Below, piece by piece: positions 25,750 through 27,568 of a stretch of 38,253 bases of DNA; the first letter of the stretch is position 1, and every line of letters begins with the position of its first letter. A program made the translations under genes and the position numbers. The notes beneath the pieces were generated by a model. That model was not told where the DNA came from. It made no database searches and worked only from the letters and a program-made list of their open reading frames with translations. The DNA comes from Escherichia phage Fostie: the sequence record PP925832.1. One strand, written 5' to 3'.

Positions 25750-27365
25750 GCTCGTTTTCCTAACTGCTGTCTGATATCACTGACGCGATTAAGCGCCTGC
25801 TGAATTCTTTCCTGGGTAGGCTGCTCTTCTGCCTGTGCCTGCTGGCGCTGCTGAGCTTCGATTCGTTTAGCGAAGCTGATCCGCTTGTGCTTAATGAAGT
25901 TTGAGACTGTCGGAGTGATGTCCATCGGGTAATCGCTCAGGCCGTTCGGCCATACGCCAAAACGTTCGCGGAAGGTGTGAGAACACCAGGCATCGCTGAC
26001 AGGCTTTTTCCCCAGCGATACGCGCTGGCGTTGATAGAATTTGATCTGACTCCACCAGGCTTGTTTCTCTTCCTTCGTCGGCTGGCGCTGCTCGCCCCCA
26101 AGTTTTTTGAGTTTTCGCCCAGTGTCGGTATCAATGTCCTCACCGGCCAGCGGCTTGTGGCCACATTTAGGGCAGACATAGACGCCAGCAGGCTTCATGA
26201 AGTGGCATTGTGAGCATTCGTGAGGCAGCTTTTCTGCTCGTTCCTCAGCCGCGCGGCGCGCGCCCTCCTCCATCCCGTCTGATTTACCCGGAAGATCGTC
26301 ATATTCGATAGAGTCCGGATAACCCAGGCGGTGCACGGTGCCGCTGTGATCGAAGATGAGGCAGGACTCTTTACCCGGTGCGGTGCGCAAGCCACGCCCG
26401 AGCGCCTGCAGCCAGCGAATTTCGCTCTTTGTTGGCCTGGCGTAGATGATGCAGCGAACATCGCTGTCGAACCCGGCAACCAACACGCCCACACTGACGA
26501 TGATTTTTGTGGCGCCAGTTTCGAAGCGATGAATGATGGTTTGGCGTTCTTCCGCAGGCGTTTCTGCAGTCATAACCTCTGCATTTACGCCAGCCTGGTT
26601 AAACTGAATAGTCAGAAAATTAGCGTGGTCTACGTTGACGCAGAACGCGATTGTCGGCAGATCCCGGCCGTTCTCCAGCCAGTTTTGGACGATATCGCCC
26701 ACCAGCGTTGAACCGCACATGATCTCCGCCAGCTGCGCCTCGTTGTAGTCGGTACCGTACTGCAGGGAGGGAGAGGTTTTAACCCCTTTCAGATCCGGCT
26801 TTGTGGGCGCGTAAAATTCGTATTTGCTCAGGTCGCCGCGCTGGATCAGCTCGCCGATGGTGGTTGGCTTAATCAGTCGGTCATAGTATTTGCCCAGGAA
26901 CGGGGAAAACGGTGTACCCGACAGGCCGATCACTTTCACGCCTTTTTCACGCAGGCGTTCGATATCCTGCAGGATGCGTTTTTTGCGCAGGTGCGCTTCG
27001 TCAATAATCAGCAGATCGATATTGTCAGGGAACACGCGACGAATAAGCGTATCAGCGCTGGCGATTTGTATTTTGAGGGTAGGATCGTAGTTTGGGTGAT
27101 CCGCCCAGACATAGCCGATTTCATCACCCGGCAACCCATACTCCACAAAACGGTTTGCTGTTTGGGTAATGAGGATCTGGTAAGGCGCGCAAAACATCAC
27201 CCGCATGCCACGACTGACGAACCCCGCAACGATGAAGGCGGCCAGTCCTGTTTTACCGCTGCCCGTCGGCGAGTACACCATGAAAGTTTCCGTATCCTTC
27301 CAGTTACGGCGCAGCTGGTTAAGTGCTCGTTCCTGTGCAAAATTCGGTGTGATCGTCAGCTGCAT
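25746..27365 (-). CDS. SF2 DEAD/DEAH-box replicative helicase
   Basis: 539 aa; Walker A SPTGSGKT, DEAH box IIDEAH, C-terminal zinc ribbon CSQCH...CPKCGH. Confidence 0.75.
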   Translation of the reverse strand: MQLTITPNFAQERALNQLRRNWKDTETFMVYSPTGSGKTGLAAFIVAGFVSRGMRVMFCAPYQILITQTANRFVEYGLPGDEIGYVWADHPNYDPTLKIQIASADTLIRRVFPDNIDLLIIDEAHLRKKRILQDIERLREKGVKVIGLSGTPFSPFLGKYYDRLIKPTTIGELIQRGDLSKYEFYAPTKPDLKGVKTSPSLQYGTDYNEAQLAEIMCGSTLVGDIVQNWLENGRDLPTIAFCVNVDHANFLTIQFNQAGVNAEVMTAETPAEERQTIIHRFETGATKIIVSVGVLVAGFDSDVRCIIYARPTKSEIRWLQALGRGLRTAPGKESCLIFDHSGTVHRLGYPDSIEYDDLPGKSDGMEEGARRAAEERAEKLPHECSQCHFMKPAGVYVCPKCGHKPLAGEDIDTDTGRKLKKLGGEQRQPTKEEKQAWWSQIKFYQRQRVSLGKKPVSDAWCSHTFRERFGVWPNGLSDYPMDITPTVSNFIKHKRISFAKRIEAQQRQQAQAEEQPTQERIQQALNRVSDIRQQLGKRA

Positions 27366-27531
27366 TGTGCGGACCCCGCGGTGATGAGATAATAATTCTG
27401 TGATGTGGTTTTCATGGATTCCCCCTCACATGGCTGGTGGCCTCCCCAAAGGCTGCCAGCCTCCCTTCTGATTCAGCTCCCCTGAAAAATCACTCTTCCA
27501 GAAAGAACCCTTTTTGTTTCTCAGCGTCTGA

Positions 27532-27568
27532 GCGCCTTGTACTACCTTGCTGATACAGGCGTTTTTTT
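27532..27568 (+). terminator. Orphan plus-strand intrinsic terminator in early-right non-coding region
   Basis: Hairpin GCGCCTTGTAC / GATACAGGCG (one bulge, 9-nt loop) followed by T7 at 27562..27568; all flanking genes are minus-strand. Confidence 0.45.

Follow-up and report, generated by a model that had tools for sequence, protein, structure and literature searches.

A conserved leader reading frame and a possible antisense RNA at the helicase gene of Escherichia phage Fostie

The sar RNA of phage P22 is a short cis-antisense RNA that covers the ribosome-binding site of ant. In the RNAI-repY-repZ system of IncB/IncI-alpha plasmids an antisense RNA blocks a leader peptide that is needed for translation of Rep, and in plasmid R1 (IncFII) translation of repA is coupled to that of the leader reading frame tap. 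Control through this leader peptide by the antisense RNA CopA goes back to Blomberg et al. 1992, as cited in PMC5883639. The OOP RNA of phage lambda exerts its effect through a 52-nt overlap with the 3' end of cII (PMC5869508). Here we describe a locus in Escherichia phage Fostie (sequence record PP925832.1), whose 38,253 nt, called the window below, represent a lambdoid temperate phage or prophage. In this locus a leader open reading frame (ORF) of 19 codons ends on the start codon of an SF2 helicase gene and contains, on the opposite strand, a candidate promoter that an earlier note on this DNA had linked to a small RNA analogous in position to OOP. Our analysis points, tentatively and with somewhat less than even confidence, to a cis-antisense RNA over the ribosome-binding site of the leader ORF that would work like CopA in the CopA/tap/repA system.

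The locus and plasmid R1 have in common a short leader ORF just upstream of a replication gene, with an overlap of stop and start codons here. The proposed action is also the same, as the RNA would block translation of the leader peptide and thereby synthesis of the replication protein, and in both cases antisense RNA and target would form mirror-image stem-loops, here the hairpin SL1 near the leader ribosome-binding site. There is no sequence similarity between the two and a plasmid collection gave only six prophage-like leader matches, so that the relation is one of analogy only; homology to plasmid copy-control regions (IncFII copA/tap) was considered and rejected, since none was found in this collection. 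The two systems differ further in the host replicon, which is a lambdoid temperate phage here, in the regulated protein, which is an SF2 helicase and not an initiator, in the site of action, because the predicted RNA overlaps the leader Shine–Dalgarno (SD) sequence and AUG directly instead of being bound upstream of them, and in the number of structures, with a single clear stem-loop here. The system described here is a prediction from sequence. The likeness to P22 sar and to RNAI-repY-repZ was likewise recognized by inspection of the sequence; no homology was observed, and the helicase leader yielded no activator of the pseudoknot type.

The analogy to lambda pO-oop-tO stands as far as position is concerned. 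Lambda has, and the present phage is predicted to have, a small RNA of leftward type that runs opposite to the pR operon and is encoded between the replication genes and the cII position. A promoter-like element here lies where pO lies in lambda, at the 5' end of the first gene for replication, and points like pO to the ORF at the cII position (PMC5869508). From cI through cro and this ORF to the replication genes, the order of genes is also the same. For the target the analogy fails: OOP acts on the cII mRNA (PMC5869508), whereas the predicted RNA would overlap the leader of a replication gene and, with its end at 27568, would stop at least 225 nt before the stop of the cII-position ORF at 27793, so that it is not an OOP homologue. 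This ORF (27793..28137, minus strand) has no Pfam match, its sole PHROG match is phrog_852 (function unknown), and no cII family match could be detected. There is no sequence homology either, as no lambda genome is among the 13 matched phage-collection records, and no Rfam family was matched. A true OOP analogue that down-regulates the cII-position gene is hence, in our view, very improbable.

Leader reading frame, promoter candidate and SL1

The leader ORF (MKTTSQNYYLITAGSAQCS) is unannotated and lies at 27415..27356 on the minus strand, with its ATG at 27415. It is preceded by a strong SD sequence, GAGGGGG (27427..27421), and its stop codon TGA (27358..27356) overlaps the start codon of the helicase gene (25746..27365, minus strand; start codon 27363..27365) as ATGcagcTGA. 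The gap of 427 nt between the helicase gene and the cII-position ORF (27366-27792), described in the earlier note as non-coding, holds most of this conserved ORF, and the promoter candidate sits within the latter, with the -10 covering leader codons 8-10.

The region was found in Yersinia phage YP3, Cronobacter phage ENT39118, Salmonella Fels-1 and E. coli phage phi467, in 80-83 of 5426 complete E. coli genomes (the 140-nt leader of strain UMNK88 is 100% identical to the window), in prophages of Pseudescherichia, Pseudocitrobacter, Citrobacter, Enterobacter, Trabulsiella and Superficieibacter and in 80 IMG/VR contigs. Among 60 of the 80 leader-carrying E. coli genomes, none belongs to a well-studied strain with a map of transcription start sites. 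All of the 100 loci analyzed contain the leader except four from Xenorhabdus and one from Colwellia. Between the window-type genomes and those of the Fels-1/phi467 type, homology extends from 27340 to about 27479 and resumes at about 27537; the first shared block comprises the helicase 5' end, the leader ORF, SL1 and an 18-nt tail.

The leader ORF is present in all Enterobacteriaceae relatives that carry the leader block, and about 50 distinct leader sequences were observed. The SD sequence and the stop/start overlap are kept across them, with three exceptions: YP3, where a premature stop occurs at codon 13, the locus L012, which starts with GTG, and the deletion variant L059 described below. 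The peptide itself drifts, with changes of Q6 to R, L or K, of N7 to D or I and of L10 to R or H; positions 12-15 vary freely, and the peptide as a whole is free to vary after codon 5. Because ORF, SD sequence and stop/start overlap are kept while the peptide drifts, these data suggest that the leader ORF matters through being translated and not through its product. Since the leader ORF ends on the helicase start codon, translation of the helicase is probably coupled to that of the leader.

Reading the proposed promoter from the sequence, we confirmed its elements at the positions given in the earlier note: a -35-like hexamer TTGTGC at 27365-27370, a spacer of 17 nt and GATAAT at 27388-27393, all on the plus strand. 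The -35 overlaps the helicase start as proposed, its first T pairing with the A of the helicase ATG (27365..27363) on the other strand. What the earlier note had missed is a TG in front of the -10, which turns it into an extended -10, TGaGATAAT (27385..27393), from which a transcription start at about 27400 is predicted. Applying the definition TGn followed by at least five of six matches with A2 and T6, we found only five extended -10 motifs in the 38 kb of the window, both strands included, and the one at 27385-93 has the best -35. Its sequence is unchanged in 65 of 66 distinct window-type relatives, the exception being L059. Apart from the L059 deletion, positions 27384-27395 are invariant in these 66 sequences, and the spacer (27371-27383) and the start region (27398-99) differ in many of them. 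The -35 TTGTGC is identical across the 66 sequences, a hexamer which is constrained by the helicase start and by the end of the leader ORF as well; in Fels-1 it reads TTGTCC. Fels-1 also keeps ATTATC and the TG (TGcGATAAT) despite changes of the flanking codons from YYL to HYR (Y to H, L to R). We regard the conservation of the -10 as suggestive of a promoter and not as decisive, because codons 3, 5, 12 and 13 likewise show no variation at their third positions. A LexA box (CTGT-N8-ACAG) as reported near lambda pO was absent from the promoter on inspection by eye.

The hairpin SL1 (27432..27461, plus strand) consists of GGCTGGTGGCCT, the loop CCCCAA and AGGCTGCCAGCC, which form 12 continuous pairs including U.G and G.U. 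As plus-strand RNA it has a folding energy (dG) of -22.1 (z -4.6), and as minus-strand RNA, where a 2x2 internal loop interrupts the stem, a dG of -17.9 (z -2.7). The hairpin is more stable on the plus strand in 16 of 16 sequence variants, and standard pairs occupy 96.9% of the cells on the plus strand versus 84.4% on the minus strand. Pair 9/22 runs through the series G-C, G.U and A-U. States that favour the plus strand are common and clade-wide; those favouring the minus strand are singletons. As an internal control, two hairpins beside the cII-position ORF in the same genomes lean to the mRNA strand in most variants, and because they lean the opposite way the strand asymmetry of SL1 is not a compositional artefact. 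One edge of SL1 lies 4 nt from the leader SD region, and its mirror on the mRNA is a stem-loop with the loop UUGGGG just upstream of the leader SD. The stretch between the predicted start and SL1 (27400..27431, plus strand) is the predicted 5' tail of the antisense RNA and is complementary to the leader SD, the AUG and the first five or so codons.

From these elements a plasmid-style cassette for translational control can be proposed, in which a leader module of 115-140 bp would stand before the replicative SF2 helicase gene. The extended -10, inside the leader ORF and in the opposite orientation, would start a plus-strand RNA at about 27400, whose first 30 or so nt would form a single-stranded 5' tail complementary to the leader SD and AUG. 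The SL1 loop CCCCAA may kiss the mirror loop UUGGGG on the early-right mRNA, and pairing of the two RNAs would block translation of the leader and, through coupling, lower the synthesis of the helicase. Such an RNA may prevent replication in lysogens and impose a threshold on it after induction. The motifs with their conservation, the geometry of the ORF and the energies of the hairpins were observed directly, and transcription, RNA ends, coupling, repression and any action of Rho are inferred from them. The earlier note had predicted a plus-strand RNA of about 165 nt antisense to the helicase 5' untranslated region. Conservation of TGnGATAAT, the preference of SL1 for the plus strand and a T-run that is kept with a few compensatory stem changes agree with this prediction, but the target would be the ribosome-binding site of the leader ORF with roughly its first five codons and not a plain 5' untranslated region.

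Possible antisense control weighed against functions of the mRNA alone

The 3' end of the predicted RNA is uncertain, with a length of about 70 nt or about 165 nt. Termination may be inefficient and occur just after SL1, where the tail UCCCUUCUGAUU makes a poor U tract, or at a weak hairpin followed by the T-run at 27562-27568; RNA reading through would meet a G-free, C-rich tract that, by its composition, would suit the loading of Rho. The T7 run is present where the earlier note had placed it. A terminator here would indeed be an orphan, as the minus strand holds all ORFs of at least 100 aa between positions 1 and 28279. Its description as canonical with a stem of about 9 bp could not be upheld: the structure, which we call T1 (27533..27568, plus strand; hairpin 27533-27561), has T7 directly after the stem, but this stem is of 8 bp with a bulged T, the loop is of 12 nt and the dG is -7.3 kcal/mol. 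Its pairs, given by the last two digits of 275xx, are C33-G61, G34-C60, C35-G59, C36-G58, T38-A57, G39-C56, T40-A55 and A41-T54, with T37 bulged. The likely terminator of cI (T8 at 29104-29111, 24 nt after the cI stop) can serve as a yardstick of strength, and its hairpin of -8.7 kcal/mol is similarly modest.

In relatives the T-run is always present, with lengths from T4 to T9, and is preceded by a hairpin of -1.6 to -9.6 kcal/mol (59 terminator-region variants). We observed compensatory changes in T1, from C36-G58 to T-A in L008 and L015 and from T37/A57 to C-G in L009, and a broken stem in L017 and L011. Genomes of the window type and of the phi467 type both retain, at the homologous site, a T-run after a hairpin of some kind, and the stems differ, that of the phi467-type genomes being UUGUACUAG/CUGGUACAA before a T6. 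A Klebsiella phage with a related helicase has neither the leader/promoter block nor a usable T-run hairpin at the homologous place, which we count in favour of antisense control.

A considerable number of observations weigh against this reading, and many of them would be expected if there were no dedicated small RNA at all. Leader ORF and SL1 would then be features of the mRNA only (coupling, mRNA stability, a protein-binding hairpin), the -10-like motif would be conserved as part of a constrained leader, and the T-run would be part of a conserved intergenic DNA or mRNA element made up of an 18-mer and an alternative hairpin, T2, whose loop is rich in A on the mRNA. The motifs themselves are weak, and neither exceeds chance when considered singly. 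The -35 matches the consensus at 3/6 positions and the promoter as a whole at 8/12, and it was not called by a sigma-70 consensus scanner, which found promoters between 25500 and 29500 at the level of shuffled sequences (6 found versus 4.6 expected). T1 was not called by the terminator scanner, its loop being too long; in the same interval two terminators were found versus 4.5 expected from shuffles. Runs of at least six T occur 25 times on the plus strand of the window; several are antisense to coding sequence and follow chance hairpins of -10 to -18 kcal/mol, and sites with a hairpin and T-run of equal quality are common on this strand, so that T1 alone is not beyond chance. The mean dG of T1 is -5.6 on the plus strand versus -5.0 on the minus strand (43 hairpin-segment variants), and in many relatives, and in one clade, T1 is not the minimum free energy fold. 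The third codon positions over the -10 (codons 7-10) are unexceptional beside the other invariant codons named above; a test on third positions was not significant, four invariant codons in a row being statistically unremarkable.

The structure around the T-run can also be read in another way. T2, (A)GGCG(T)/(A)CGCC(C) at 27557..27578 on the plus strand, places the T-run in its loop, excludes T1 and competes with it at equal stability (dG -3.6 to -12.9 in relatives). It shows compensatory changes as well: at 27557/27578 relatives have either G-C or A-T, where the window has a mismatch, and the Fels-1 equivalent of T2 is GGGCA/TGCCC. The 18-mer GTACTACCTTGCTGATAC (27539..27556), which makes up the inner part of the T1 stem together with the loop, is near-invariant, unique in the window and better conserved than the outer arms of T1. 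The GTACT of the 18-mer region occurs again at 27694 and, inverted, at 27708. A small hairpin, CTCAG-CGT-CTGAG (27520..27532, plus strand), stands directly before T1 and belongs to a segment of 57 nt (27480-27536) that was found only in window-type genomes. A plus-strand small protein of 38 aa (27437..27553) was considered and rejected, as an A-run at 27484-88 varies from A4 to A6 among relatives and shifts the frame.

Promoter and T-run moreover lie in separate modules. In genomes of the Fels-1/phi467 type a gene (122 aa in Fels-1, STM0899, phrog_1347) replaces the 57 nt that separate the two shared blocks in the window, and a transcript from the Fels-1-type promoter would need about 520 nt, across this gene, to reach the T-run. 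Promoter and T-run are about 385 bp apart in genomes of the Fels-1/phi467 type, with the gene included in this distance. Because a gene lies between them in these genomes, promoter and T-run are not inherited as one compact gene, and the single unit of promoter and T7 terminator in the earlier note, with its weak and variable hairpin, does not hold. The 121-122-aa gene of phrog_1347, with function unknown and no Pfam match, is located at 2676-3044 in L003 (STM0899 of Fels-1) and at 2678-3046 in L004; genes of this type are also present in L006, L007, L061, L062, L069 and L089.

SL1, the leader and the databases add further points on the same side. G.U is tolerated only on the plus strand at five SL1 sites, and at four others only on the minus strand, that is on the mRNA; shuffle controls for SL1 covariation were not significant. 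No conserved structure that would sequester the helicase ribosome-binding site was found, which leaves coupling to rest on the stop/start overlap. A natural variant, L059, exists without any -10. No Rfam family was matched by the whole window at the gathering score, and the gap scanned at E values up to 10 gave only noise (E 2 to 9). Literature on Fels-1 antisense RNAs or small RNAs and on STM0899 held nothing relevant, so that in these scans and searches the element matches no Rfam family, annotation or paper; work on the Pas/STnc100 small RNA was set aside, as it concerns other loci.

Three findings speak against functions of the mRNA alone. The common SL1 alleles place two or three A.C or C.A mismatches in the mRNA helix and are fully paired on the plus strand, Fels-1 has altered the residues flanking the -10 and not the hexamer or the TG, and extended -10 motifs are rare in the window. 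We consider an explanation by mRNA features only as possible, though rather doubtful, and retain antisense control of the leader as our working proposal. As an observation apart, the L059 sequence (IMG/VR UViG_3300011531_000027) carries a 20-nt deletion between CATCAC repeats that removes leader codons 4-10 and the whole -10. The deletion joins the leader start in frame to the helicase, and the genome is thus a ready-made 'promoter-less' variant.

The C-rich tract and the genes around the gap

Beyond T1 the plus strand is G-free and C-rich from 27626 to 27687, with a GC skew down to -0.94, and is correspondingly G-rich on the early-right mRNA; between 27616 and 27690 we counted 34 C and 5 G among 75 positions. 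The tract is nearly invariant in a 17-sequence alignment of relatives and more conserved than the neighbouring sequence. Its composition would suit Rho loading on a plus-strand RNA; other candidate roles are a G-rich R-loop or G-quadruplex stretch linked to replication, or a protein-binding site. It is retained in the Klebsiella phage that has no leader block and no such promoter, and because of this it probably has another primary role. We rejected a mini-ORF that would start within the G-rich tract on the minus strand, with its ATG at 27685, since indels in YP3 shift its frame and the Fels-1 peptide is unrelated. In Klebsiella phage ST11-VIM1phi8.3 (L026, 1695-2081) a plus-strand 'hypothetical protein' is annotated across the tract, antisense to the unannotated cII-position ORF, and is probably a mis-call.

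From 27400 the plus strand heads towards cro (28073..28279, minus strand) and cI (28373..29080, plus strand), and the terminator-like site is followed by this nearly invariant tract. The promoter might fire and yield non-regulatory antisense noise, with T1 and the C-rich tract as an insulator against plus-strand transcription, which would otherwise be antisense in the cII-position gene and cro and sense in cI. Antisense transcription in enteric bacteria is described as pervasive but rarely conserved (PMC3419515). Invariance of the promoter motif in 65 distinct genomes of several genera would be unexpected for noise, the tract is kept where there is no such promoter, and the plus-strand preference of SL1 suggests that RNA structure matters; we judge this explanation to be unlikely.

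The gap lies directly upstream of the pair formed by the helicase and a P4-type primase (24778..25749, minus strand). It contains an AT-rich run, GATC at 27589 and 27606, the skewed tract and the invariant 18-mer. These features would fit plus-strand hairpins that act not as RNA but as single-stranded DNA or origin elements for the helicase/primase pair, such as a signal for priming or for loading of the helicase; a tolerance of G.T wobbles restricted to one strand is compatible with either single-stranded DNA or RNA. Apart from short repeats at chance level, neither iterons nor repeated motifs for binding were found; SL1 cannot be essential to the origin, as the Klebsiella phage with a related helicase has no SL1/leader block; and the leader ORF and the -10 would be left unexplained. 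A role in DNA is accordingly improbable in our judgement. The GATC (Dam) sites (27589-27592 and 27606-27609) are 17 nt apart, in conserved sequence that separates the T-run from the C-rich tract, and phi467 has AGATCGAGATCT at the equivalent position.

Directly past the stop of the cII-position ORF, two tandem hairpins were observed in the minus-strand sense (27740-27763 and 27769-27786). On the mRNA they have in common an 8-nt loop, UUAAAGGU, on different stems, GAACAGGC/GCCTGTTC and CGGGT/ACCCG. Fels-1, phi467 and the Klebsiella phage have one hairpin with this loop each, on stems that differ again. One of the mRNA-strand hairpins is kept in the Klebsiella phage without leader block. The G.U patterns favour the mRNA strand, and the tandem hairpins look like a real structured RNA or protein-binding element. 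A pairing of the nutL/nutR type was rejected, as no copy is present on the pL side.

Among the remaining genes, the cI-type repressor (28373..29080) was assigned by Pfam through HTH_3 and Peptidase_S24, Cro (28073..28279) through PF09048 and the SF2 helicase through ResIII, Helicase_C and DEAD; a Q antiterminator lies at 23999..24781 on the minus strand. An ORF of 130 aa downstream of cI (29596-29988, plus strand) carries a GDSMQPT motif like that of S24 (LexA/UmuD-like) peptidases, and a 'CI-like repressor' is annotated at a similar place in ENT39118. A search of the rest of the window for second copies of the gap or for trans targets gave short matches at chance level only.

Proposed antisense control of a phage helicase

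If the elements described here are not parts of one system, the locus is a caution, as an 'orphan promoter plus terminator' may be two unrelated conserved elements that lie close to each other by chance. If antisense control is real, it would place a lambdoid replication module under post-transcriptional antisense control via a leader peptide. The leader-peptide antisense logic is known from IncFII and IncB plasmids and not from phage helicase genes, and the locus would be a new instance of it that is unrelated in sequence. It would also mark an unannotated gene of 19 codons in many Enterobacteriaceae prophages, among them Fels-1, phi467 and those of enterotoxigenic E. coli (ETEC) UMNK88 and O121 RM8352. 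Relatives with a common leader carry different repressor genes. A further step, which is speculative and which we hold to be rather unlikely, would be that the leader block, made up of leader ORF, SL1 and a promoter that faces inward, is a portable plasmid-like copy-control cassette grafted onto lambdoid replication operons. The antisense RNA would then be constitutive in lysogens and act in trans on incoming phages with the same helicase leader, whatever their repressor, resulting in exclusion or incompatibility between heteroimmune phages at the level of replication. For the prophage itself, antisense control of the leader would mean a brake on replication that is independent of the repressor.

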